Shown here piece by piece: positions 1,064 to 48,473 of a stretch of DNA of 64,000 nucleotides (position 1 is its first letter; every line of letters starts with the position of its first letter). The position numbers were made by a program, and so were the translations under genes. Under the pieces are notes generated by a model, which was not told where the DNA came from, searched no databases, and saw only the letters and a program-made list of their open reading frames with translations. This stretch comes from an uncultured Acidobacteriota bacterium (GTDB taxonomy: Bacteria > Acidobacteriota > Thermoanaerobaculia > Multivoradales > UBA5704): positions 5,024,001 through 5,088,000 of the forward strand of contig OY969474.1 of NCBI GenBank assembly GCA_963700145.1, in the 5' to 3' direction.

Positions 1064-1208
1064 CGCGGGAGTCCTCTCCGGAGGACGAAAAGCCGGTATC
1101 AGAGCTTGCTACCTCGGTCTCGAGCCTTGATACCTCCGTATCAGCCGCTGATACCCCTGGAGTTGCCCCGCTTTGGTGGACACCTCATCCTTCGGGAGAA
1201 AGGAGTCC

Positions 1209-1529
1209 ATGATGGGGAGTCACCGCGGCAAGCCCTACCCGGCGGAGTTTCGTCGGCGGATGGTTGAGTTGGTGCGGGCCGGGCGGACGGCCGAGGAGCT
1301 GAGTCGGGAGTTCGAGCCCTCGGCCGAGTCGATTCACGACTGGGCACGCCAAGCCGACCGGGACGAGGGCCGGCGCGACGACGGGCTGACGACGGCCGAG
1401 CGCGAGGAGCTGCGCCGGCTGCGGCGGGAGAATCGCCAGTTGCGTGAGGACCGGGAGATTCTGGCAAAAGCCGCGGCCTGGTTTGCTCGGGAGACCGAGT
1501 CGAGCCCACGGAAGGGTTCGGATTCGTGA
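1209..1529 (+). CDS. IS3 transposase OrfA (HTH + leucine zipper)
   Basis: RBS aaggag before ATG 1209; motifs YPAEFRRRMVELV and EELRRLRRENRQLREDREILAKAAAWF. AAAAG at 1466-1470 is a candidate -1 frameshift site, and the -1 frame is open into orfB. Confidence 0.92.
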   Translation: MMGSHRGKPYPAEFRRRMVELVRAGRTAEELSREFEPSAESIHDWARQADRDEGRRDDGLTTAEREELRRLRRENRQLREDREILAKAAAWFARETESSPRKGSDS

Positions 1530-2371
1530 GGGCGCACCAGGCCTGCTACAGGGTAGTGAGGATGTGCCGACTGCTGGGTGTCTCCTCCAGCGGGTATTAC
1601 GCCTGGTGTCGGCGTCAGGCCGGTGCGCGAGCCCGAGCCGACGCGGCGCTCGGCGCGCAGATCCGGGCGATCCACGCGCGGTCGTGGGGGACTTATGGGG
1701 CGCCCCGGATCCACGCCGAGCTGGCGGCGCAGGGCGTACGGGTGGGGCGCAAGCGTGTGGGGCGGCTGATGCGCGAGGCCGGGCTTGGGGGCGTCAGTCG
1801 GCGGAAGTGGCCCCGGACGACGGTGCGAGACGGCCAAGCCCGCCCGGCGCCGGATCTGGTCGGCCGTCACTTCACGGTCGACGCTCCGGATCGGCTCTGG
1901 GTGGCCGACATCACCTACATCCCGACCACGGCAGGGTTTCTGTACCTGGCCGTGGTCGTCGACGCCTGGAGTCGGCGCGTGGTGGGCTGGTCGATGGCGA
2001 CGCATCTGCAGACCGAGCTCGTGGTGGCGGCACTGGAGATGGCGCTTGGACAGCGGCGGCCGCAGGGCGTGATCCATCATTCCGACCAGGGGACGCAGTA
2101 CACCTCGTTGGCCTTCGGCCAGCGCTGCCGACGAGCCGGTGTGCGGCCGTCGATGGGGTCGGTCGGGGACTGCTACGACAACGCGCTGTGCGAGAGCTTC
2201 TTTGCCACGCTCGAGTGCGAGCTGCTCGACCGGCGGCGCTTCGGGACCCAGACCGAGGCCCGGATGGCGGTGTTCGAGTTCCTCGAGGGCTGGTACAACC
2301 CGCATCGCCGGCACTCGGCCCTGGGCTATCTCAGCCCGGCGGAATTCGAGCGCCGGCGACGGGCAGCCTGA
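1526..2371 (+). CDS. IS3 transposase OrfB (DDE integrase core)
   Basis: Motifs WVADITYI, HHSDQGTQY, DNALCESFF and YNPHRRHSALGYLSP. GTGA overlap with orfA. Confidence 0.95.
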   Translation: MRAHQACYRVVRMCRLLGVSSSGYYAWCRRQAGARARADAALGAQIRAIHARSWGTYGAPRIHAELAAQGVRVGRKRVGRLMREAGLGGVSRRKWPRTTVRDGQARPAPDLVGRHFTVDAPDRLWVADITYIPTTAGFLYLAVVVDAWSRRVVGWSMATHLQTELVVAALEMALGQRRPQGVIHHSDQGTQYTSLAFGQRCRRAGVRPSMGSVGDCYDNALCESFFATLECELLDRRRFGTQTEARMAVFEFLEGWYNPHRRHSALGYLSPAEFERRRRAA

Positions 2372-2574
2372 GATGCACGTCACTCCTGGCGTTTTCGTCG
2401 GATCGTGGGACGGGCAGCTGCCCGCCTCACGCAGGGGAGGAGACCCCAAACTTCAACTGTCCACCAAACCGGGGTAAGTCCAGTCCACCCCTGTATCAGC
2501 CGTCGATACCTCCGGATCGGGCGCTGCTACCGAGGTATCTGGCGCCGTTACCTAGGTATCGGGCGCCGCTCCCC

Positions 2575-4033
2575 GGGGTTGTCCCTCCCGCTGTTGAAAG
2601 AGCAATGAGGTGAAGGCGGCTCCTCGGCCCACCTGATCGAGAATCGGGTTGGTCGAATAACCGGCCCCGCCAGGGGGCCAAGGAGCCGTGATGAAGACGA
2701 GAGCAGAAAGGCGGGTGGTGTGGCAAGGGGGCCGTGCGGCGCGCATCAGCCACGGGCTACAAGCGCTGCTGCGGCCGATGGTCGAGGGCATCGAGGCCAG
2801 CCGCCAGGGGCTGCTGGAGCTGTTTCACGCCGCGGGCGTCGAGGCCCTGGGGCGGCAGCTCGCGGACGAGGTCGAGGCCGTCGTCGGTCCGAAGCGTCGG
2901 CGCAATCCGACCCGCGAGGCGTACCGCTGGGGCTCGACGGCGAGCGAGTTCGTGCTGGGTGGCCGCCAGGTGGCGCTGCCGCGACCGCGCGTCCGGCGAC
3001 GCGACGGTGGCGAGATGAGCTTGCCTTCGGTGCGCGCCTTTCAGGACGAAGATCCCTTCACGGAGCGGGTGATCGAGCAGGCGCTGGTCGGCGTCTCGTA
3101 GCGCCGCTACGGTCGGAGCTTGGAGCCGCTCGCAGAGTCGGTGCCGGAGCGCGCGACGAGCAAGAGTGCGGTCCAGCGCCGGCTGGTGGCGGGGACGCGT
3201 CGTCTGCTGGACGCGTGGCTGCGCCGAGACCTGTCGGACTTCCAGCCCCTGATCCTGATGATCGACGGGCTGGAGGTGGCCGGCCACACCCTGGTGGTGG
3301 CACTCGGCATCGCGCGCGACGGGACCAAGCGGGTGCTCGGCCTGCGTGAAGGCGCGACGGAGAACGCGGCGCTCTGTACCGGCCTGCTCCAGGAGCTGTT
3401 GGAGCGAGGCCTCGCGATGCCGCCGCGCTTCTTGGCGGTGCTCGACGGCGGCAAGGGGCTGCGCAAGGCCGTGCGCGCCGTCTTCGGGGACGCAACCCAC
3501 GTCCAGCGCTGCCAGCTCCACAAGCGCCGCAACGTCCGCGACCACCTGCCCAAGCAGCTCCAAGCCCGGGTCGACCGCCTGATGGTCGAGGCCTACCAGA
3601 GCGCTCGCTTCGACCTCGCCAAGCGTCGCCTCGAGCAGCTTGCCCGCTGGCTCGAGCACGCAGGCCACGCGGGCGCCGCGGGCAGCCTGCGCGAGGGCCT
3701 CGACGAGACCCTCACCGCCTTGCGGCTGAAGCTGCCCGACGCTCTGCGCCGGTTGCTCGCCTCGACCAACGCGATCGAGAACACGATCGGCTCGATCCGT
3801 ACGACGACGCGCAACGTCAAGCGCTGGCGCGGCGGCGACATGGTGCTGCGCTGGGTCGCCCTGGCGCTGTGTGACGCGGAGGCTGGCTTCCGGCGTGTCA
3901 AGGGACATCGGCACCTCGGGGCTCTCGAGCTCGCGCTCGCGGCGATCGAGGAACCGACGAACACCAAGGCCGTGGCATGATCAACCGAGCCGCTTTCCCT
4001 CTTTCGGCTTTCAACAGGGAACGGGGCATCCCC
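2575..4033 (+). mobile_element. IS256-family insertion sequence
   Basis: Long imperfect IRs: left ggggttgtccctcccgctgttgaaag...gcggctc; right gagccgc...ctttcaacagggaacggggcatcccc. No target duplication is visible. Confidence 0.88.
2688..3980 (+). pseudogene. IS256 (mutator-type) transposase interrupted by one in-frame TAG at 3099-3101
   Basis: ORFs 2688-3101 and 3120-3980 share a frame and read GVS*RRY across the stop. Motifs LMIDG, LDGGKGLRKAV, QRCQLHK and STNAIEN. Confidence 0.88.
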
Positions 4034-4182
4034 CAGAGGCGCCGCGCGTTCGATCAGGCGCGCGATATCCGGAGGGAGGTTCTCGAAGCTGGTCACCCTC
4101 TTTCATTGTACTTCGAGACTCCGCTGGGCTTGGTATTGAGGGAGCGGCCGCTGCCCGGCACTATGAACGCCTTCAGCCGAAG

Positions 4183-5862
4183 TCAGAACCTCTCACTCGT
4201 CGACACCAGCCACTGCACCCCCTCGATCGTGTCGTCGCCGTCGAGGGGGAAGGCGACGTCGAGGTGGATCATCGAGCCGCCGGAGGAGCGGCCGGAGCCG
4301 ATGCGCAGGCCGATGCCGACGTCGCGCAGCACCTCGGGGTCGTCGAGGGAGCTGCGGAACCAGGCGCTGCCGGCGTCGAAGAAGATCGCGGCGCCGAGGT
4401 GGAAGAGGCGGAAGAGCTCGCGCTGGCTGAAGAAGCGCTGCTCGACTGTCGCCAGCAGCCGCCGGTCGCCGCGCAGGAAGCGGAGCGGGTAGCCGCGCAG
4501 GCCGCTGTCGCCGCCGAGCAGGAGCTGGCGCTCGACGTCGAGGTCCTGCGCGTAGTCGGCCTCGAGCCCGAAGTAGAAGACCTGGTCCCCCCAGTGCCGC
4601 AGGTAATAGCGGGCGCGCCCGGAGAGCAGGAGGTTCTCGGCCGCGTCGCGGTAGCGGCCGCCGCCGCGCAGCGACGTGAGGAGAAGCTGGCGCGGCCCGG
4701 GGCGCCAGCCGGCGTCCGCCGAGGCGATCATCATCAGCCGCTCTTGGTCGGCCCCGAGGTCGGGGGAGGACCAGCCGAGGCGCACGCGGAGCTGGGTGCC
4801 GAGGTTGAGGTCCTCGGTGCGGCGGATCTGGTCGAGGTTGCGCTCGGTGACGAAGCCGTCCTCGACGTACTCGTAGCCCAGCCAGGGCCAGCGCAGGTCG
4901 CGGTTCGGCGGCACCAGCGACGTCGAGTCGCCGCCGGGCTGGAAGTCGAAGCGGTCGCGCTCGACGTCGACGCCGAGGAGGAAGCGGTGCGCCCGGCCCT
5001 CCGCCCGGCCGCGCGAGAGGCCGCCGTAGAGCTGCGCGAAGTCGTGGTGGTGGCGGAAGCGCTCGAAGACGAGGCCGCGGTCGTAGAGGGGATCGAGCCG
5101 CTCGTAGGACCAGAGCTTGATCCCCAGCGACCACCGGGTGTCGAGCGAGAACCAGGGGCGCTCGAGCTCGAAGCGTTGGGCGTCGCCGTCGCTGTTCTCG
5201 GCCACCGACAGGTGCAGCTCGCCGCGCTTGCCGAAGAGGTTGGGGTCGCGGTAGCGGAAGAGGGTCGAGTCGCGATCGACGTCGCTGCTGCGCCAGACCG
5301 TCACGTCCTTGCCGGTGCCCAGGAAGTTGGCGTCCTGCAGGCTGAAGTTGGTGCTGTTCTCGCCGCCGGCGCGGTTGACGGAGACGCCGCCGCGCAGGGT
5401 CCAGACGTCGCGCGTCACCACCTCCAGGTCCACCCGCTCGGGGGTCTGCCGCACGGCGTTGATCTCGGCGTCGTAGAGGTAGCGGTTGGCGCGCAGCAGG
5501 CGCTCGGACTCCTCGATCGTGGCCTCCTCGTAGGGGTCGCCCGGCGCGAAGAGGAGCTGGCGGCGGATGACCTGCGGGCGGGTCGTGCGGTGCAGGCGGT
5601 CGGCGAGGCGGAAGGCGAGCTTGTCCTCCCCCTGGCGGTCGGGGTTGAAGATCCCCTGGGTGACGATCCGCACCTCGCCGATGACCGGGCGCCCCGGCTC
5701 CTCCGCGGCGCCGGGGCTCTGCTGCTCCGGCCGCGCGGCGGCCGTGAGGTCGGGCAGGTAGCGGGGCGACCAGGCCTGGGCCGGGCGAGGCAGCGCGACA
5801 GCCGCGGCGAGGGCGAGGAGCGCACCGCAGCGGTGGACGGCGCGAAGGCGGAAAGGGATCAC
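4183..5862 (-). CDS. Omp85/BamA-TamA family outer-membrane protein with POTRA domain
   Basis: Signal peptide; POTRA-like segment (TTRPQVIRRQLLF...ESERLLR); LRGY loop-6 motif; DVGIGLR; C-terminal Phe. The GTG start at 5862 is uncertain. Confidence 0.82.
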   Translation of the reverse strand: MIPFRLRAVHRCGALLALAAAVALPRPAQAWSPRYLPDLTAAARPEQQSPGAAEEPGRPVIGEVRIVTQGIFNPDRQGEDKLAFRLADRLHRTTRPQVIRRQLLFAPGDPYEEATIEESERLLRANRYLYDAEINAVRQTPERVDLEVVTRDVWTLRGGVSVNRAGGENSTNFSLQDANFLGTGKDVTVWRSSDVDRDSTLFRYRDPNLFGKRGELHLSVAENSDGDAQRFELERPWFSLDTRWSLGIKLWSYERLDPLYDRGLVFERFRHHHDFAQLYGGLSRGRAEGRAHRFLLGVDVERDRFDFQPGGDSTSLVPPNRDLRWPWLGYEYVEDGFVTERNLDQIRRTEDLNLGTQLRVRLGWSSPDLGADQERLMMIASADAGWRPGPRQLLLTSLRGGGRYRDAAENLLLSGRARYYLRHWGDQVFYFGLEADYAQDLDVERQLLLGGDSGLRGYPLRFLRGDRRLLATVEQRFFSQRELFRLFHLGAAIFFDAGSAWFRSSLDDPEVLRDVGIGLRIGSGRSSGGSMIHLDVAFPLDGDDTIEGVQWLVSTSERF

Positions 5863-5921
5863 GTCGAGACCGGCGGACAGGGCGAGAGGACCGGCCGGGA
5901 TTGTACTACGGCCCGCGGCCG

Positions 5922-7106
5922 TCACCCTTCGCGCGGCCACCGGCGCTGCAGCGCGAGCGTGGCCGCGAAGTGCGCCTCGACCTCGGCCATCGAGTCGCCG
6001 CCGAGCTTCTCGAGCAGGGCGTCGGCCAGGACCAGCGCCACCATCGCCTCTGCGATGACCCCGGCGGCGGGCAGCGCCGTGACGTCGCTCCTCTCGTACT
6101 GCGAGGCGTGCGGCTCGAGAGTGTCGAGGTCGACGCTCGGCAGCCCCTTGCGCAGGGTGGAGATCGGCTTCTTATAGGCGGTCACCACGACGTCCTCGCC
6201 GTTGGTCACCCCGCCTTCGAGCCCGCCAGCGCGGTTCGTCGGGCGGCGCCAGCCTTGCTCGTCGCGCTCGATCGCGTCGTGCGCCGCGCTGCCGAAGCCG
6301 CGGCTGGCGGCGACAGCGGCGCCGATCTCGACCGCCTTGACCGCCGGCACCGACATCACCGCCTGCGCGAGACGTCCGTCGAGCTTCTCGTTCCAGGCGA
6401 CGTGCGAGCCGAGCCCGGCGGGCACGCCGTGCGCGACGACCGTCACTGACCCGCCGAGCGTCTCCCCCTCGTCGCGCGCTTGCTCGACGAGGCGCACCAT
6501 CTCGGGCTCCAGGCCGCGGTCGATGGCGCGCAGCGGCGACTCGTCGTCGACTTGCAGGAGCTCTTCCCAGGACGGCACCGGCCGGTCGGTGCCGAGCGGC
6601 CCGAGCGAGCGCACGCCGCTGCGTATTTCCACGCCGACGGCGGCGAGGAGCATCTTGGCGAAGGCGCCGGCGGCGACGCGCGCCGCCGACTCGCGCGCCG
6701 AGGCCCGCTCCAGCACGTCGCGCAGGTCGCGGCGCAGGTACTTGAGGCCGCCGGCCAAGTCGGCGTGCCCGGGCCGCGGCGCCTTGAGCCGCCGCAGCTC
6801 GGCGGCGCGCGGCTCCAGCTCCAGCGGGTCCATGACACCGCGCCAATTGGCGTAGTCGCGGTTCTCGATCCAGAGGACGACGGGGGAGCCGAGGGTCTCG
6901 CCGCCGCGCACGCCGCCGCGGATCTCCGCCCGGTCGTGCTCGATCTGCATCCGCCGGCCGCGCCCGAAGCCGTGCTGGCGGCGCGCCATCTCGCGCTCCA
7001 GGAGCGCCAGGTCCACGCGCAGGCCGGCGGGCAGGCCGCTCAAGATCGCGGTGAGCCCGGGGCCGTGGCTCTCCCCGCCCGTGGTCAGGCCGAGGCGGCG
7101 CAGCAT
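5922..7106 (-). CDS. aroC: chorismate synthase
   Basis: Motifs TGGESHG, PRPGHAD, ERASARE, NRAGGLEGG and ERSDV. Start placed at MLRRL. Confidence 0.97.
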   Translation of the reverse strand: MLRRLGLTTGGESHGPGLTAILSGLPAGLRVDLALLEREMARRQHGFGRGRRMQIEHDRAEIRGGVRGGETLGSPVVLWIENRDYANWRGVMDPLELEPRAAELRRLKAPRPGHADLAGGLKYLRRDLRDVLERASARESAARVAAGAFAKMLLAAVGVEIRSGVRSLGPLGTDRPVPSWEELLQVDDESPLRAIDRGLEPEMVRLVEQARDEGETLGGSVTVVAHGVPAGLGSHVAWNEKLDGRLAQAVMSVPAVKAVEIGAAVAASRGFGSAAHDAIERDEQGWRRPTNRAGGLEGGVTNGEDVVVTAYKKPISTLRKGLPSVDLDTLEPHASQYERSDVTALPAAGVIAEAMVALVLADALLEKLGGDSMAEVEAHFAATLALQRRWPREG

Positions 7107-7119
7107 GGGGACGAGCGTA

Positions 7120-8592
7120 TCAGCGGGTGAAGTCGAGGAAGCCGCGCTCGGGGTCGGCGGCGGCGAGCCGCACCTCGACGCGGTCGCCGACGTCAAGCCC
7201 GGCGGCGCCGTGCGCCAGCTTCCCCTCGACCGGCGGCTCGACGATGCGCACGTAGGTGCCGTGCGGCGTGACGCCGGTCACCACGGCCGCGAACGTCTCG
7301 CCGATGCGCGGCGCGAGGTAGAGCGCCGCCGCCGCTTTCGCGACCTGCCGCTCGACGCGCCGGCCCTGGTCCTCGCGCTCGGTGCAGCGACGGGCGAGGT
7401 CGAGCAGCTCGTCGTCCGTGTAGGGGCAGCAGCGGCCGGCGAGCGCCGCCTGCAGGACGCGCTGCGTCACGAGGTCGGGGAGGCGGCGGTTGGGGGCGGT
7501 CGAGTGGGTATAGGCGGGGACGGCGAGGCCGAAGTGGCCGGGGGCGTCCTTCCCCGGCAGGTCCACCGCGTACTCGCCGCCGCCCAGGAGCTTGCGCACC
7601 GCCAGGCAGACCTCGACGTAGCCGTCGCGGTCGGCGGCGCGGCGGCGGGCGAGGAACTCGGCGAGTGCGCGGGCGTCCGGCGCCTCCGGCAGCCGGTCGC
7701 CCGCCGCGGCCGCCAGCGCGACGAGGCGGTCCCAGCGCGCCGGGGCGCGGACGACGCGGCGCAGCGCCGGCAGGCCGCGGGCGTCGAGGAAGGCGGCGGT
7801 GGAGCTGTTGGCGGCGATCATGACGTCCTCGATCAGCTTCTGCGCCCGGTTGGTGCGCTCGACGGCGAGGCCGACGATCGTGCCGCCGGCGAACACCGGC
7901 CGCGCCGTCGAGTCTTCGAGGTCGAGCGCGCCGCGCTCGTGGCGCCGGCGGCGGAGGCGGCGCGCCACCTCGTCCTGGAGGCGGACCTGCGCGTCGAGCC
8001 CGGGCACGCTGGCGAGCGCCGGCGGCGGCCCGGCGGCGCCGTCGAGCCAGGCGGCGACGTCGGGGTAGGCGAGCTTGGCGCGCGAGCGGACGCGGGCGCG
8101 CACGAAATCGACACCGTCGATACCGCCCTCGCCGTCCACCGTCATCGCGACGACGACCGCCAGCCGCTCCTCGCCGGCGACCAGCGAGGTCAGCTCGGTC
8201 GAGAGGCGCGGGGGGAGCATGTGGAAGGTCTTGCCGGCGGTGTAGACCGAGGTGGTGTTGCGGCCGGCGTGGGCGTCGATCGCGCCGCCCTGGGCGACGC
8301 GCGAGGCGACGTCCGCCACCGCCACCGAGAGCCGGACGGCGCCGCCGTCGCCCCCGAGCGGCTCGGCGACGGTGAGCTGGTCGAGGTCGCGGCTGTCGGC
8401 GTTGTCGATCGAGAACCAGGGCAGGTGCGTGAGGTCGCCGACCGCCGCCTCCCCCTCCCGCGGCGCCGGCGGCGCCACCGGCAGCCGCGCCGCCTCCGAC
8501 TGCACCGGGGGTGGGAACCCGGTCGCCATTTCCCGCTCTTCCATCGCCCGCTGCGCGAGGGAGCGGAGGATTTTCCGGTGGCTCGGGGGCAT
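7120..8592 (-). CDS. RNB-domain exoribonuclease (RNase II/R family)
   Basis: SIDNADSRDLDQ catalytic-Asp region, TTSVY, IEDVMIAAN, HFGLAVPAYTHSTAPNRRLPD, and a C-terminal S1-like domain. Confidence 0.92.
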   Translation of the reverse strand: MPPSHRKILRSLAQRAMEEREMATGFPPPVQSEAARLPVAPPAPREGEAAVGDLTHLPWFSIDNADSRDLDQLTVAEPLGGDGGAVRLSVAVADVASRVAQGGAIDAHAGRNTTSVYTAGKTFHMLPPRLSTELTSLVAGEERLAVVVAMTVDGEGGIDGVDFVRARVRSRAKLAYPDVAAWLDGAAGPPPALASVPGLDAQVRLQDEVARRLRRRRHERGALDLEDSTARPVFAGGTIVGLAVERTNRAQKLIEDVMIAANSSTAAFLDARGLPALRRVVRAPARWDRLVALAAAAGDRLPEAPDARALAEFLARRRAADRDGYVEVCLAVRKLLGGGEYAVDLPGKDAPGHFGLAVPAYTHSTAPNRRLPDLVTQRVLQAALAGRCCPYTDDELLDLARRCTEREDQGRRVERQVAKAAAALYLAPRIGETFAAVVTGVTPHGTYVRIVEPPVEGKLAHGAAGLDVGDRVEVRLAAADPERGFLDFTR

Positions 8593-8603
8593 CGCGCGCG
8601 GCC

Positions 8604-8999
8604 TCAGACCTGGCGGCAGTGCGCCGTCAGCCAGCCGGCGAGCTCGGCTTCCGAGAGGCTTCCGCTCGCCAGCTCGGTCATCGTGCGGAACGTCTCCTGC
8701 TTAGGCGCGGCGAGCCGCAGGCCGTGCAGCTCGAGGAAGGTGAGCGCGGCGGCGAGGGCGATCCGCTTGTTGCCGTCGACGAAGCAGTGGTTGCGCGCCA
8801 GCCCGTAGGCGTAGCTCGCGGCGAGCTCGCAGAGGGTCGGCTCGCGCTCGCCGTAGGCGGCGAGGTTCTGCGGCCGGGCCAGCGTGGAGCGCAGGAGCCC
8901 GAGGTCACTCACCCCTTCCGCTCCGCCGTGCTCGGCGATCAACAGCCGATGGATGGCGAGGACCGTCTCCTCGAGGAGCCATTCCGGCTCCGGCGTCAC
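8604..8999 (-). CDS. doc: Doc/Fic family type II toxin (death-on-curing)
   Basis: Doc motif NHCFVDGNKR. GTGA-coupled to the upstream antitoxin. Confidence 0.93.
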   Translation of the reverse strand: MTPEPEWLLEETVLAIHRLLIAEHGGAEGVSDLGLLRSTLARPQNLAAYGEREPTLCELAASYAYGLARNHCFVDGNKRIALAAALTFLELHGLRLAAPKQETFRTMTELASGSLSEAELAGWLTAHCRQV

Positions 9000-9220
9000 C
9001 GCGCCAGCTCACGCAGCACGTCCCGCTGGTCCTTGAGCACCCGCTCGGCCGCCCGGACCTGCCGGACGAAGGCCTCGTCGTACGGCGTGAGGGAGTAGCC
9101 GTCCGGGGTCTCCACCAAGTAAAGCACGTCCCCCTTCTGCACCTTGAGCCGCGCCATGACCTCCTTCGGCAGCACGACGCCCGCGGAGTTCCCGACCGTG
9201 GTGATCTTGAGCTCGACCAT
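8996..9220 (-). CDS. AbrB/MazE-family antitoxin
   Basis: KITTVGNSAGVVLPKE swapped-hairpin motif; 74 aa; lies upstream of doc. Confidence 0.92.
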   Translation of the reverse strand: MVELKITTVGNSAGVVLPKEVMARLKVQKGDVLYLVETPDGYSLTPYDEAFVRQVRAAERVLKDQRDVLRELAR

Positions 9221-9241
9221 GGGGTTCTCTCCCTCGGGCCG

Positions 9242-9263
9242 GATTATAACAATCGTTAGAATC
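9242..9263 (-). promoter_or_regulatory. promoter/operator of the abrB-doc operon
   Basis: Perfect TATAAT on the minus strand (9243-9248), embedded in the imperfect palindrome gattataacaatcgttagaatc. Confidence 0.7.
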
Positions 9264-9547
9264 GTGACGCGACCGAACCGGGGCAGGAAGCTTCCTCGCC
9301 AGCTCGGGAACCTTCCGTTCCACCCCCGGAGGCTTCCGCACCCCGCCAGGAAGCTTCCCGTTTGCCTCCGGAGGCTTCCGCATCCCGTCGGGAAGCTTCC
9401 GCTCCGCCTCCGGAAGCTTCCGGACCTCGCGGGGAAGCTTCCGTCCGCCTCCGGAAGCTTCCGCTTTACGTCCGGAAGCTTCCCCTTTGCCTCCGGTGGA
9501 GTTGCCCCGCTTTGGTGGACACCTCATCCTTCGGGAGAAAGGAGTCC

Positions 9548-9868
9548 ATGATGGGGAGTCACCGCGGCAAGCCCTACCCGGCGGAGTTTCGTCGGCGGAT
9601 GGTTGAGTTGGTGCGGGCCGGGCGGACGGCCGAGGAGCTGAGTCGGGAGTTCGAGCCCTCGGCCGAGTCGATTCGCGACTGGGCACGCCAAGCCGACCGG
9701 GACGAGGGCCGGCGCGACGACGGGCTGACGACGGCCGAGCGCGAGGAGCTGCGCCGGCTGCGGCGGGAGAATCGCCAGTTGCGTGAGGACCGGGAGATTC
9801 TGGCAAAAGCCGCGGCCTGGTTTGCTCGGGAGACCGAGTCGAGCCCACGGAAGGGTTCGGATTCGTGA
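9548..9868 (+). CDS. IS3 transposase OrfA
   Basis: Identical to 1209-1529 except SIRDW versus SIHDW. Confidence 0.92.
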   Translation: MMGSHRGKPYPAEFRRRMVELVRAGRTAEELSREFEPSAESIRDWARQADRDEGRRDDGLTTAEREELRRLRRENRQLREDREILAKAAAWFARETESSPRKGSDS

Positions 9869-10710
9869 GGGCGCACCAGGCCTGCTACAGGGTAGTGAGG
9901 ATGTGCCGACTGCTGGGTGTCTCCTCCAGCGGGTATTACGCCTGGTGTCGGCGTCAGGCCGGTGCGCGAGCCCGAGCCGACGCGGCGCTCGGCGCGCAGA
10001 TCCGGGCGATCCACGCGCGGTCGTGGGGGACTTATGGGGCGCCCCGGATCCACGCCGAGCTGGCGGCGCAGGGCGTACGGGTGGGGCGCAAGCGTGTGGG
10101 GCGGCTGATGCGCGAGGCCGGGCTTGGGGGCGTCAGTCGGCGGAAGTGGCCCCGGACGACGGTGCGAGACGGCCAAGCCCGCCCGGCGCCGGATCTGGTC
10201 GGCCGTCACTTCACGGTCGACGCTCCGGATCGGCTCTGGGTGGCCGACATCACCTACATCCCGACCACGGCAGGGTTTCTGTACCTGGCCGTGGTCGTCG
10301 ACGCCTGGAGTCGGCGCGTGGTGGGCTGGTCGATGGCGACGCATCTGCAGACCGAGCTCGTGGTGGCGGCACTGGAGATGGCGCTTGGACAGCGGCGGCC
10401 GCAGGGCGTGATCCATCATTCCGACCAGGGGACGCAGTACACCTCGTTGGCCTTCGGCCAGCGCTGCCGACGAGCCGGTGTGCGGCCGTCGATGGGGTCG
10501 GTCGGGGACTGCTACGACAACGCGCTGTGCGAGAGCTTCTTTGCCACGCTCGAGTGCGAGCTGCTCGACCGGCGGCGCTTCGGGACCCAGACCGAGGCCC
10601 GGATGGCGGTGTTCGAGTTCCTCGAGGGCTGGTACAACCCGCATCGCCGGCACTCGGCCCTGGGCTATCTCAGCCCGGCGGAATTCGAGCGCCGGCGACG
10701 GGCAGCCTGA
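9865..10710 (+). CDS. IS3 transposase OrfB
   Basis: Protein identical to 1526-2371. Confidence 0.95.
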   Translation: MRAHQACYRVVRMCRLLGVSSSGYYAWCRRQAGARARADAALGAQIRAIHARSWGTYGAPRIHAELAAQGVRVGRKRVGRLMREAGLGGVSRRKWPRTTVRDGQARPAPDLVGRHFTVDAPDRLWVADITYIPTTAGFLYLAVVVDAWSRRVVGWSMATHLQTELVVAALEMALGQRRPQGVIHHSDQGTQYTSLAFGQRCRRAGVRPSMGSVGDCYDNALCESFFATLECELLDRRRFGTQTEARMAVFEFLEGWYNPHRRHSALGYLSPAEFERRRRAA

Positions 10711-10927
10711 GATGCACGTCACTCCTGGCGTTTTCGTCGGATCGTGGGACGGGCAGCTGCCCGCCTCACGCAGGGGAGGAGACCCCAAACTTCAACTGTC
10801 CACCAAACCGGGGTAAGTCCACCGGAAGCTTCCGCCTCAGGTCCGGAAGCTTCCGCAGCCCCTCGGGAAGCTTCCTACGCGCCTCGGGAGGCTTCCGGGC
10901 CGCGCGGTCATAGCGAAGCGCGAGTAA

Positions 10928-31379: not shown

Positions 31380-31591
31380 GTTACGGAGATCGAGCGCCCG
31401 TTACGGAGATTGCGCGCCCGTCACGGAGATGGAGCATCCATCTCGGAGATCGAGCGCCCATCTCCGAGATCGGGCGCCCATCTCGGTGACGGCGCTTCCG
31501 TCACGGTGACGCAGCCTCCCATCTCGGAGATCGCGCGCCGGTCACGGAGATCGCGCGCCGATTACGGAGATGGAGCTTCCATCTCCGAGAC
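31380..31591. repeat. 20-bp-period palindromic tandem array 3 (11 units, core ATCTCgGAGAT / GTCACgGTGAC)
   Basis: Units at 31380, 31400, 31420, 31440, 31460, 31480, 31500, 31521, 31541, 31561 and 31581, between convergent genes. Confidence 0.92.
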
Positions 31592-32128: not shown

Positions 32129-33463
32129 CTAGGGGCAGCCGACCGTCTGGATCGAGTCGCTGCCGGTGAATGGATCGCCGCCCAGGGTCGCGCCGACGAG
32201 GGTCGCCGTCGTGTCGCCGCACTGGATGCCGGTCGCCTGCGTCCGGAAGTGCAGCACGAGGTCGAGGTCGCCGTCGCCGTCCACGTCGGCGGGGTGGCCC
32301 TTGCCGTGGGCCTCCGGCGCGCCGGCCGGGCCGGAGAAGCGCACTGTCGCGACGTCGATCGTCAGGGCGTCGAACCCCGCGTCGCTGAGCACGGCGACGG
32401 GGATCACCCCGTGGCTGTTCGGGTTGACGCTGTTGGGGAAGCTCCCGGGCTTGACGTCGATCGCCACCACCGCCGGCGGCTCCGGCTCGTCCAGGGGATC
32501 GAACTCGAGGAAGTTGTAGTTGCGGCCCGCCGGCAGGAAGGGGTTGCCGATCAAGGCGCCGGTGGCGAGGTCGAGCCCGAAGATCCGCCGCGTGTTCGGG
32601 TCCTCGGCCTGGAAGACGCCGGCGAAGTAGAAGACGTCGTTGTTGGGGTCCAGCGCCGAGACGCCGCTCGAGACCAGGCAGCAGCCGGCGACGCCGGCGC
32701 CGACCGGGGTCAGCGCCCCGGTCGCCGGGTCGATCGTGGCCAGCAGCTCGGTCGTCGTGGCGGTGTCGAAGGCGACGGTGTAGAGGGTCCCCGGGCTGCG
32801 GTCGAAGCCCAGGAAGTTGTAGTTGAAGCCGGCTGGAAGCAAGGGGTTCGAGAGCACCGCCCCGGTCGCGACGTCGAGGGCGAAGATGCGCATGTCGTTC
32901 GGCCCGTCGGCCATGAAGCGGCCGAAGAAGTAGGCCACGTCGCCGGCAGCGTCGAGCGCCGAGGTGCCGCTCGGCACCAGGCAGCAGCCGGCGGCGCCGG
33001 CGCCGATCGGCGTCACGGCGCCGGTCACCGGGTCGATCTCGGCCAGCACCTCGGCGGTCGCGCCGAGGTCGTGAATGATGCCGTAGAGCGTGCCGGTGCC
33101 GGGGTGGAAGTCGATGAAGTTGTAGTTGAAGCCGGCCGGCAGGACCGGCTGCGAGAGCACCGCGCCGGTCGCCGCGTCGAGCGCGAAGATGCGCTGGGTG
33201 CCCGGCGGGTCGGCCTGGAAGAGGCCGACGAAGTAGAAGACGTTGGCCGCCGGGTCGAAGGCGGAGACGCCGCCCGGCACCAGGCAGCAGCCGGCGATGC
33301 CGAAGGCGGCGTCGGTCAGCGCGCCGGTCGCGGGATCGACGACCGCCAGCCGCTCGACCGTCGTCGCCGTGTCGAAGGCCACCGTGTAGAGGGTGTCCGA
33401 GGCCTGCAGCCCCGCCGCCGTCAAGAGCCCTGCGCCCAGCACCGCCGCGGTCATCGCGCGCAT
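32129..33463 (-). CDS. secreted protein with three ~100-aa tandem repeats (probable beta-propeller) and a C-terminal Ca-binding-like domain
   Basis: Signal peptide; three copies of TLY...DPATG...AGCCLV...RIFALD...PAGxNYNF; C-terminal IDVKPG...DVDGDGDLDLVLHF. Confidence 0.85.
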   Translation of the reverse strand: MRAMTAAVLGAGLLTAAGLQASDTLYTVAFDTATTVERLAVVDPATGALTDAAFGIAGCCLVPGGVSAFDPAANVFYFVGLFQADPPGTQRIFALDAATGAVLSQPVLPAGFNYNFIDFHPGTGTLYGIIHDLGATAEVLAEIDPVTGAVTPIGAGAAGCCLVPSGTSALDAAGDVAYFFGRFMADGPNDMRIFALDVATGAVLSNPLLPAGFNYNFLGFDRSPGTLYTVAFDTATTTELLATIDPATGALTPVGAGVAGCCLVSSGVSALDPNNDVFYFAGVFQAEDPNTRRIFGLDLATGALIGNPFLPAGRNYNFLEFDPLDEPEPPAVVAIDVKPGSFPNSVNPNSHGVIPVAVLSDAGFDALTIDVATVRFSGPAGAPEAHGKGHPADVDGDGDLDLVLHFRTQATGIQCGDTTATLVGATLGGDPFTGSDSIQTVGCP

Positions 33464-46568: not shown

Positions 46569-48473
46569 ATGGTGACCGAGGCCCCGAGGACCTCCGAGGA
46601 GCGCTTCCGCCTGCTGGTCGAGGGGGTGGTGGACTACGCCATCTTCATGCTCGACCCCGAGGGGCGGGTGACGACCTGGAACGCCGGCGCGCAGCGCATC
46701 AAGGGCTACACCGCCGAGGAGATCCTGGGACACCACTTCTCGCGTTTCTACCCGCCGGACGCGATCGCCACCGGCTGGCCGGACCACGAGCTGGAGGTCG
46801 CCCGCACCGTCGGCCGCTTCGAGGATGAAGGGTGGCGGCTGCGCAAGGACGGCACCCGCTTCTGGGCCAACGTCGTCATCACCGCTCTGCGCGACGAGAC
46901 CGGCACCCTCCTCGGCTTCTCCAAGATCACCCGCGACCTGACCGATCGGCGCATGCAGGAGGAGATCCTGCGCCAGAGCGAAGAGCGCTTCCGCCTGCTC
47001 GTCGAGGGGGTCCAGGACTACGCCATCTTCCTCCTCGACGACGACGGGCGGGTGGCGAGCTGGAACGCCGGCGCCGAGCGCATCAAGGGGTACGCGGCCG
47101 AGGAGATCATGGGCGAGCACTTCTCCCGCTTCTATCCGCAGCAGAAGATCGCGGCGGGGTGGCCGGAGCACGAGCTCGAGGTCGCCCGCGCCGAGGGCCG
47201 GTTCGAGGACGAGGGGTGGCGGCTGCGCAAGGACGGCACCCGCTTCTGGGCCAACGTCGTCATCACCGCCCTCCACGACCGCGAGGGGCGGCCGCGCGGC
47301 TTCGCCAAGCTGACGCGGGACCTGAGCGAGCGCAAGCGGGTCGAGGAGCTGGAGAGCGGCGAGCGGCAGATGACCGAGTTCCTGGCCATGCTGGCCCACG
47401 AGCTGCGCAACCCGCTGGCGCCGATCCGCAACGCCGTCCTCGCCCTGCAGGCCGGCTCGGCCGCGGGCCCGAGCCCGGAGTGGGCGACGCAGGTGATCGA
47501 CCGCCAGGTGACGCACCTGACGCGCCTGGTCGACGACCTGCTCGACATCAGCCGCATCACCAGCGGCAAGATCGAGCTTCAGCTCGAGCCCGTCGAGGTC
47601 GCCGACATCGTGGCCCGCGCCGTCGAGTCCAGCCGGCAGCTCATCGAGGACCGCGGCCACAGCCTCGAGGTCGCGCTGCCGGAGCAGCCGTTGTGGGTCC
47701 AGGGAGACGCCGTCCGGCTCTCCCAGGTCTTCCTCAACCTCCTCAACAACGCGGCGAAGTACACCCCGGAGGGGGGCCGCATCGAGATCGGCGCGGAGCG
47801 CGACCGCGGCCAGGTGGCGATCCGCGTGCGCGACTCCGGCGACGGCATCGCGAGGGACCTGCTGCCGCGGGTCTTCGACCTCTTCACGCAGGGGGAGCGG
47901 GCGCTCGACCGCGCGGAGGCCGGGCTGGGCGTCGGCCTGACCCTGGTGGAACGGCTGGTGCGGTGCCACGGCGGCTCGGTGGCGGCGGCGAGCGAAGGGC
48001 CCGGCCGCGGCAGCGAGTTCGTCGTCCGCCTGCCGCTGCTCGAGCGGGCGCCGGCGCGCCCGGCGGTCCCAGCGCCGGAAGCGCAGGCCCAGCCGGCCGG
48101 CGGGCGGCGGGTCCTGGTCGTGGACGACAACCGCGACTCGGCGGAGACGATGGCGGTCCTGCTGCGCCTGTGGGGGCACGAGGCGCGGAGCGCCGAGCAC
48201 GGCGCGGCGGCGCTGGCGGTGGCCCAGGAGTTCCGGCCGGAGGCCGTGCTGCTGGACATCGGGCTGCCGCAGATGGACGGCTACGAGGTGGCGCGGCGCC
48301 TGCGCGCGCTCCCGGGCCTCGACGGCGTGCTGCTGATCGCGATGACCGGCTACGGCCAAGACCAGGACCGCCGCCGCGCCCGCCGGGCGGGCTTCGACCA
48401 CCACTTGGTCAAGCCGGTCGACCCCGAGGATCTGCGGCGGCTGCTGGCTCTCGCCCCGACGCTCTCTGGTTAA
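46569..48473 (+). CDS. hybrid sensor kinase (PAS-PAS-HisKA-HATPase-REC)
   Basis: Two near-identical PAS domains (DYAIF...WNAGA...LRKDGTRFWA), LAHELRNPL, NNAAKY and LLDIGLP. Confidence 0.93.
   Translation: MVTEAPRTSEERFRLLVEGVVDYAIFMLDPEGRVTTWNAGAQRIKGYTAEEILGHHFSRFYPPDAIATGWPDHELEVARTVGRFEDEGWRLRKDGTRFWANVVITALRDETGTLLGFSKITRDLTDRRMQEEILRQSEERFRLLVEGVQDYAIFLLDDDGRVASWNAGAERIKGYAAEEIMGEHFSRFYPQQKIAAGWPEHELEVARAEGRFEDEGWRLRKDGTRFWANVVITALHDREGRPRGFAKLTRDLSERKRVEELESGERQMTEFLAMLAHELRNPLAPIRNAVLALQAGSAAGPSPEWATQVIDRQVTHLTRLVDDLLDISRITSGKIELQLEPVEVADIVARAVESSRQLIEDRGHSLEVALPEQPLWVQGDAVRLSQVFLNLLNNAAKYTPEGGRIEIGAERDRGQVAIRVRDSGDGIARDLLPRVFDLFTQGERALDRAEAGLGVGLTLVERLVRCHGGSVAAASEGPGRGSEFVVRLPLLERAPARPAVPAPEAQAQPAGGRRVLVVDDNRDSAETMAVLLRLWGHEARSAEHGAAALAVAQEFRPEAVLLDIGLPQMDGYEVARRLRALPGLDGVLLIAMTGYGQDQDRRRARRAGFDHHLVKPVDPEDLRRLLALAPTLSG

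Follow-up and report, generated by a model that had tools for sequence, protein, structure and literature searches.

Biased insertion of an IS3-family element into phased 20/21-bp intergenic arrays in the genome of an uncultured Acidobacteriota bacterium

Targeting of repeated extragenic palindromes by bacterial insertion sequences (IS) has been known since IS1397, an element which inserts in the loop of a palindromic unit and generates duplications of 3-4 bp. The known targets are, to our knowledge, repetitive extragenic palindromic (REP) units or bacterial interspersed mosaic elements (BIMEs) which are accompanied by REP-associated tyrosine transposases (RAYT) and in which the insertion point is fixed. 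Here we describe an element of 1325 bp which we assign to the IS3 family, two copies of which lie within arrays of 21-bp units in a 64,000-nucleotide stretch of DNA (the window) from an uncultured Acidobacteriota bacterium of the class Thermoanaerobaculia. The window comprises positions 5024001-5088000 of a single-contig genome of 5,455,767 bp with 71.5% G+C, referred to below as G000 where it has to be told apart from its relatives. Integration of the element is biased to such arrays, the bias is independent of the identity of the array core, and it is limited to some of the IS types present. We consider it probable that this reflects an active IS3-family element whose integration favours the non-coding, phased and mostly palindromic 20/21-bp arrays of this lineage.

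According to passages of an earlier report (PMC1525189), IS of the IS3, IS110, IS4, IS256 and IS5 families target REP palindromes, the choice of target being attributed to the transposase itself. The same passages describe ISPsy8, an IS3-family element of Pseudomonas syringae with a PF01527 OrfA and a 3-bp direct repeat, as found in REP clusters at a single insertion position, the symmetry axis of the predicted REP hairpin, and place ISRm5 of the IS256 family, which prefers extragenic spaces with REP sequences, in a looser 'preference' class (PMC1525189). The element studied here is like ISPsy8 in its family, in its PF01527 OrfA and in its insertion within repeat clusters, but unlike ISPsy8 its offsets vary and only one site (that in array 1, below) lies at a dyad. 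It is also like IS1397 and ISKpn1, which land in enterobacterial REP/BIME sequences, in that it is an IS3-family element with orfA/orfB and an rve domain and is found in clustered extragenic palindromes.

The 1325-bp element and its two insertions in the window

The two insertions and the arrays around them are made up of the following features, given in window coordinates.

1087-1157, no strand: left part of array 1, 21-bp units with GATAC/GTATC palindromes; CCCC at 1154-1157 is the left target duplication
1158-2482, + strand: IS3-family copy 1, 1325 bp, TG..CA ends; HTH_Tnp_1, then HTH_21 and rve
2483-2491, no strand: right border of copy 1, with an extra GTCCA (2483-2487) followed by the right CCCC duplication (2488-2491)
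2492-2574, no strand: right part of array 1, 4 units in the same register as the left part; 2566-2574 (CCGCTCCCC) is the left IS256 duplication
2575-4033, + strand: IS256-family element, 1459 bp; transposase frame 2688-3980, broken by TAG at 3099-3101
9286-9496, no strand: left part of array 2, 10 units with a GGAAGCTTCC core; CCGG at 9493-9496 is the left duplication
9497-10821, + strand: IS3-family copy 2, 1325 bp, same sequence as three other genomic copies
10822-10897, no strand: right part of array 2, CCGG duplication (10822-10825) and 4 more units in the register of the left part

In copy 1 orfA occupies 1209-1529 and orfB, which ends at 2371, is in the -1 frame; an A AAA G motif at 1466-1470, where orfA and orfB overlap, is the predicted frameshift site, and the -1 frame is open from there. 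Profile matches of the 1325-bp element were to PF01527 (1.3e-9) for OrfA and to PF13276 (1.5e-20) and PF00665 (1.4e-26) for OrfB. The ends of the element, TGGAGTTGCC... and ...GGTAAGTCCA, are imperfect terminal inverted repeats of the 5'-TG..CA-3' type, and the target duplications at its sites are of 3-4 bp (GGG, GGA, GATG, CCGG, CCCC and CCCA). Based on orfA, the -1-frame orfB, the A AAA G motif and the 3-4 bp duplications, the element can be assigned from its sequence to the IS3 family.

A first-pass annotation of the window had placed copy 1 within a core of array 1 with a cccc duplication and copy 2 within a core of array 2 with a ccgg duplication, and direct reading confirmed both placements. 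It had also stated that excision of the copies restores the 21-bp register of the arrays, which proved to be exact in both: the register is 21 bp across each junction once the IS, one duplication and, for copy 1, the GTCCA are taken out. In array 2 a single unit, upstream of the junction, is natively of 20 bp. The GTCCA which follows copy 1 repeats the last 5 bases of the right tip of the IS and was seen in no other copy. The two window copies differ by 1 base in 1324; of the five copies in the genome four are identical, and window copy 1 is off by one base.

Target choice in the genome and in its nearest relative

For each IS copy in the genome, 126 bp on either side were scored for self-match at lags of 20-22 and 41-43 and a flank was called periodic at a score of at least 0.5, a measure which is independent of the array catalogue described below. 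As a null, 4.9% of 30,000 random non-coding positions pass this test, and 2.0% of positions of any kind. The five copies of the 1325-bp element, all with their own duplications and distinct flanks, are located as follows.

Window copy 1: within array 1; duplication CCCC
Window copy 2: within array 2; duplication CCGG
Genome 2,946,139: within a GGAAAGCTTTCC array; duplication GGA
Genome 748,331: close to a TCCATGG-type array, approximately 20-40 bp from its degenerate edge; duplication GGG
Genome 4,825,741: ordinary DNA, 484 bp from an array; duplication GATG

A periodic flank was found for three of the five copies, and the flank of a fourth scored 0.48. The probability of at least three in five is 1.1e-3 at p = 0.049 and 8.6e-3 at p = 0.10, and all five copies lie no more than 500 bp from an array, as against 9% expected. 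The examination of all genomic copies which the first-pass annotation had proposed thus gave an enrichment in arrays (3/5 against the 4.9% null). The same flank test gave the following counts for the other IS types of the genome.

1459-bp IS256-family element (in the window): 2/21
Approximately 1290-bp IS5-family element: 0/8
Second IS256-family element, 1367 bp: 3/3
Second IS3-family element, 1658 bp: 2/3, the third copy being in an array that resembles CRISPR

Fisher's test of the 1325-bp element (3/5) against the 1459-bp IS256 and IS5 elements together (2/29) gave P = 0.015. An array preference is therefore supported for the 1325-bp element and was also seen, incidentally, with the 1367-bp IS256-family and 1658-bp IS3-family elements. 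For the 1459-bp IS256 element a general preference is not supported: two periodic flanks in 21, with 4.9% expected, corresponds to P(>=2) = 0.28, and these two copies trace to the single array 1 insertion and to a G-rich flank. The claim of the first-pass annotation that all three IS of the window sit in or against arrays was correct in that each did insert in an array, but it was overstated as regards the IS256 type. The 1367-bp element, with 3/3 copies in or at arrays, is like ISRm5 in this respect, while the abundant 1459-bp element of the same family is unlike it.

The bias was seen again in a second genome. A scan for the exact 27-base left end of the element led to three contigs of a metagenome-assembled genome (MAG), 'Thermoanaerobaculia bacterium SMAG_U1604' (G301), the nearest public relative found, and the whole MAG was then searched. 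In syntenic stretches G301 and G000 have 84-90% nucleotide identity, and the IS end is 95% identical. Three left-end and four right-end junction contigs, one pair of which could be joined by a shared CCCA duplication, correspond to 6 sites, none of which is orthologous to an insertion site in G000. The flanks are periodic at three of these sites (lag-21 scores of 0.53, 0.72 and 0.65), where the cores are GGGGAACGCTCCCC (twice) and GGAGGCTTCC; a fourth site starts with one lone unit like those of the arrays (GGAACTGTTCC / CCGGACCGTCCGG type) and the other two are in ordinary DNA. In G301, 0.47% of a 212,883-bp sample consists of arrays. When the two genomes are combined, 6 of 11 independent sites are periodic (P = 5.2e-6 at p = 0.049 and 3e-4 at p = 0.10), and 8 of 11 are array-associated when the edge site and the probable site are counted; like REP-targeting IS, the element thus has most of its copies in repeated extragenic palindromes.

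An alternative, which we hold to be quite unlikely, is that insertion is random and that copies survive mainly in arrays as the largest dispensable blocks. Such sorting would fit with the arrays being non-coding and gained or lost between relatives, with the presence in them of IS of three types, with the three IS copies in a CRISPR array, and with an IS density of 0.35 IS/kb in arrays as compared to at most 0.033 IS/kb in other non-coding DNA. However, the IS256 (21) and IS5-family (8) copies are nearly all in non-coding DNA outside arrays (2/29 periodic), and nearly all leave no plausible reading frame across the restored site. Dispensable non-array sites must therefore be plentiful, and as these copies have passed the same gene-disruption filter, selection alone does not explain the pattern. 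The IS3 copies are 100% or 99.9% identical and hence recent, which leaves little time for selective sorting, and the bias was repeated in G301.

It could also be argued that the two window copies, which lie 8.3 kb apart and are nearly identical, arose from a short-range jump and that their location in arrays is coincidental. We consider this highly improbable, since the three further genomic copies are 0.2 to 4.3 Mb away, two of them in or at arrays, and the same pattern is present in G301 with a combined P of approximately 5e-6.

The arrays and what the element may recognise

When the whole genome was analyzed with Tandem Repeats Finder at a minimum of 3.5 copies, 123 rows had a period of 21 and 22 had a period of 20, while no other period exceeded 41 rows, the 41 being at period 42. 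Merging gave a catalogue of 161 intergenic 20/21-bp arrays which total 28,982 bp, or 0.53% of the genome, and another 106 short tandem-repeat matches overlap coding DNA. Genes were called by our own crude methods, a first caller which made 70% of the genome coding having been replaced by one at 82%. The catalogue is a strict one which misses degenerate arrays such as that at genome 85-86 kb. A permissive version (minimum score 30) was dropped for its many false arrays, some of them within IS, and flank autocorrelation was used instead.

The cores of the arrays vary widely and include GGAAGCTTCC, GGATGTATCC, GAGATCTATCTC, GTATCAG..CTGATAC, CGGGCGCTCCCGCACCGAAA and many others. Among 52 arrays of rigid register, conservation is 90% in the ten best columns and 75% in the others. 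Self-complementarity of the unit consensus at no fewer than 14 positions was seen in 24 of the 52, as compared to 147 of 1040 shuffles, so that the term 'palindrome arrays' holds for about half of them. Arrays of at least 100 bp (n=123) are evenly distributed round the chromosome and occur in every intergenic context, convergent gene pairs being over-represented (32% as compared to 15%). The whole 20/21-bp period consists of a 10-14 bp core and a 7-11 bp semi-conserved spacer, which distinguishes the arrays from CRISPR, where repeats of 23-47 bp alternate with unique spacers of similar size. A search of a limited collection of literature found no description of such arrays.

The pattern GGAAGCTTCC-N11-GGAAGCTTCC (at most 2 mismatches) had 109 matches in G000, whereas the count did not exceed 5 in any of 300 other class genomes, several of which contain 21-bp arrays with other cores. 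At one orthologous locus G301 has a 21-bp array which holds the IS (contig L063, 141-250) with a gene downstream, while G000 (5350063-5350335) has no array upstream of the orthologue, indicating that arrays are gained or lost between genomes that are approximately 90% identical. A three-member family of 1-2 kb repeats (genome 3107038-3108017, 3385354-3387312 and 3887520-3889617) adjoins arrays in 3/3 cases, at a distance of 36-211 bp; its reading frames have no Pfam match, and it may be a gene family or an array-associated mobile element.

The arrays are like BIMEs in being intergenic clusters of short palindromic units which are foldable and are transposition hot spots. Unlike BIMEs, they have a strict 20/21-bp period, dozens of unrelated cores and units of which about half are non-palindromic, and their abundance is lineage-specific, as the pattern counts above indicate. 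The Y1/RAYT transposase profile (PF01797), which matched 6 of 14 control genomes, had no match in the complete genome; in this, too, the arrays differ from BIMEs and the genome from those which accompany IS1397 and ISKpn1, and the trait of a cognate Y1 transposase seen with REP-targeting IS is absent. IS1397 and ISKpn1 target REP units of approximately 35-40 bp, whereas the present targets are tandem arrays of rigid 20/21-bp period whose many cores are unrelated, and insertion is at no constant point of the unit.

At least five different cores were found at the sites of the 1325-bp element, in keeping with the first-pass annotation, which had noted that the two window targets differ in sequence. 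No single fixed word is thus recognised. Its further proposal, that a structure or a bound protein is recognised rather than sequence, goes beyond what was shown, and a reading by structure alone is opposed by the presence of GGAR-N2-4-YTCC cores (GGAAGCTTCC, GGAAAGCTTTCC, GGAGGCTTCC, GGGGAACGCTCCCC, GGAACTGTTCC) at 6/8 array-associated sites, one of these cores being inferred as the right part alone is visible. The class accounts for 17 of the 161 arrays and only 10% of array bases in G000, and a bias to GGAR..YTCC cores is possible. A transposase which favours such palindromic cores would hit the arrays for their many cores and not for their phasing or for a bound protein. Also in favour of this, GGAGGAAGCC or GGAGGCTT lies to the right of the insertion, no more than 15 bp from it, at two non-array sites. 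We nevertheless regard an explanation driven by sequence in this way as rather unlikely. The pattern was chosen after the sites had been seen, and the frequency of the class is that in G000; neither array 1 (GATAC/GTATC) nor the TCCATGG-type array edge conforms to it; duplications lie at varying offsets, in the outer arm of the core at one extreme and beside the dyad at the other; and the arrays which were hit are no closer to the ends of the IS than other arrays.

In the case of IS911, Loot et al. in 2002 are said to have found insertion beside sequences like its own ends when OrfA is lacking. IS911 offers a parallel within the IS3 family for the non-random capture of targets by a transposase, but mimicry of the IS ends by the arrays was rejected as an explanation here: the 12-, 16- and 20-base tips of the present element matched the hit arrays no better than they matched all 161.

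Returning to the explanation we favour, a bias to the arrays as such, the transposase complex, or a host factor used by it, would recognise a property which the arrays have in common and which would not be one sequence word, with insertion in or beside a core at no fixed offset. A candidate for this property is the presence of many phased dyad-symmetric sites able to pair mutually, with hairpin or cruciform potential; the single-strand fold of array 2 is at -58.8 kcal/mol as compared to -38.5 +/- 3.35 for shuffled sequence (z = -6.06). A putative array-bound protein is an alternative candidate. Insertions in arrays would cost little as the arrays are non-coding and numerous, making them in effect landing pads, and the 'safe harbour' role suggested for them would reasonably follow from the bias. 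The IS256 element in array 1 would be one of 21 mostly array-independent insertions.

Several observations weigh against this explanation. The sample is small, consisting of 11 sites in two related genomes, and 3 of the 11 are in ordinary DNA so that the preference is not obligatory. The null depends on the crude gene calls (82% coding), and the enrichment would shrink if neutral non-coding DNA were much scarcer. The insertion offset within the unit is variable, with duplications from the outer core arm to next to the dyad (in array 1 the duplication is at a dyad or between palindromes), which differs from the one defined palindrome position of the well-studied REP-targeting IS. Array 1 folds weakly (z = -2.43). 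For IS relatives of 70-75% identity elsewhere in the class, 0/23 loci had periodic flanks (30 loci fetched, minus one from the same genome and 6 without one end), and none was periodic among 13 distinct flanks from metagenomes and a Gemmatimonadaceae genome which share the exact 27-base left end (15 metagenome loci and one Gemmatimonadaceae locus, one having no flank and two duplicates being removed). Neither of these results says anything on preference, however, because the two class genomes sampled are nearly array-free: 200-kb samples contained 0 and 1 arrays of at least 100 bp, as compared to 3 with the same sampling of G000.

A broader and more speculative proposal, for which we hold out rather little expectation, is that the phased arrays are a distinct undescribed class of element. 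They would capture two IS3-family types and one IS256-family type whatever the core, by means of an array-bound host protein or non-B DNA, and would act as a transposon sink at the level of the host which steers insertions from genes.

The IS256 element, other features of the window and significance

The transposase of the window IS256 gave a match to PF00872 (Mutator-type, 1e-28) on the part after the stop codon. The codon at 3099-3101 is CAG in 18/21 genomic IS256 copies, and the T is also present in the copies at 4944181 and 2200419. The element abuts array 1 at 2574, and the 9 bp on its left (CCGCTCCCC) are not matched on its right; they are found again on the right side of the copy at genome 1826499-1827957, 3.2 Mb away, beside which array 1 goes on in register for approximately 4 more units. 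On its right, the window copy shares an 8-bp duplication with the left side of the copy at 4944181-4945639, which in turn shares 9 bp on its right with the left side of copy 1826499. The IS256 was thus inserted inside array 1, and the three copies then exchanged flanks. The first-pass annotation had the element starting in the last unit of the array; the insertion in array 1 was upheld, but as CCGCTCCCC and the in-register units continue beside copy 1826499 the unit was not the last one. The cycle of shared 9-, 9- and 8-bp duplications in three copies implies at least two IS256-mediated rearrangements, one with a break point in the window.

In the genome as a whole, intact 9-bp duplications were found for 11/21 IS256 copies and 8-bp duplications for three more, and exchanged pairs explain five others. 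Between the copies at 3573030 and 3609311, which are in inverted orientation, the duplications have been exchanged reciprocally, which is what a 36-kb inversion would be expected to give. At genome approximately 1,078,900-1,092,800 a repeated 37-bp unit (GTCGCAATCCCTCCGTGCTGATCAGGTCGTTTCCGCC) with spacers of approximately 35 bp flanks two IS256 copies and one 1658-bp IS3-family copy, and this locus looks like a CRISPR array with three IS insertions.

A third array in the window contains no IS.

31383-31590, no strand: array of 20-bp period, approximately 10 units of the ACGGAGATCGAGCGCCCATC type, no IS inside

The genes near the window arrays are ordinary ones, encoding a PhoH-like protein, an Omp85/POTRA protein, chorismate synthase and an RNB exonuclease, as well as a Doc/MazE-type pair, a VapBC pair and a glyoxalase. 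Tandem repeats of 303 bp (2.9 copies, 32499-33376) and 384 bp (1.9 copies, 46595-47329) probably correspond to repeated protein domains. There was no further multi-copy repeat of at least 400 bp in the window, where single-copy transposases other than those of the rve type were not searched for, and no Rfam match in window 1-34000. The best public sequencing run contained 27% of the sampled words from window 8900-9700, approximately the share owed to the IS part.

The target described here is new in that it is a lineage-specific architecture of approximately 160 arrays, rigidly phased at 20/21 bp, which have dozens of cores and are not accompanied by a RAYT gene, and the targeting is both promiscuous across cores and element-specific inside one genome. 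For assembly, as for rearrangement mediated by IS, the arrays and the IS copies they contain are break points, and one such rearrangement crosses the window. As three IS types hit the arrays and two abundant IS types ignore them, the genome provides a natural experiment on what a DDE (Asp-Asp-Glu) transposase reads, whether sequence, phasing, structure or a bound protein, and the targeting by IS provides a first functional handle on the arrays.

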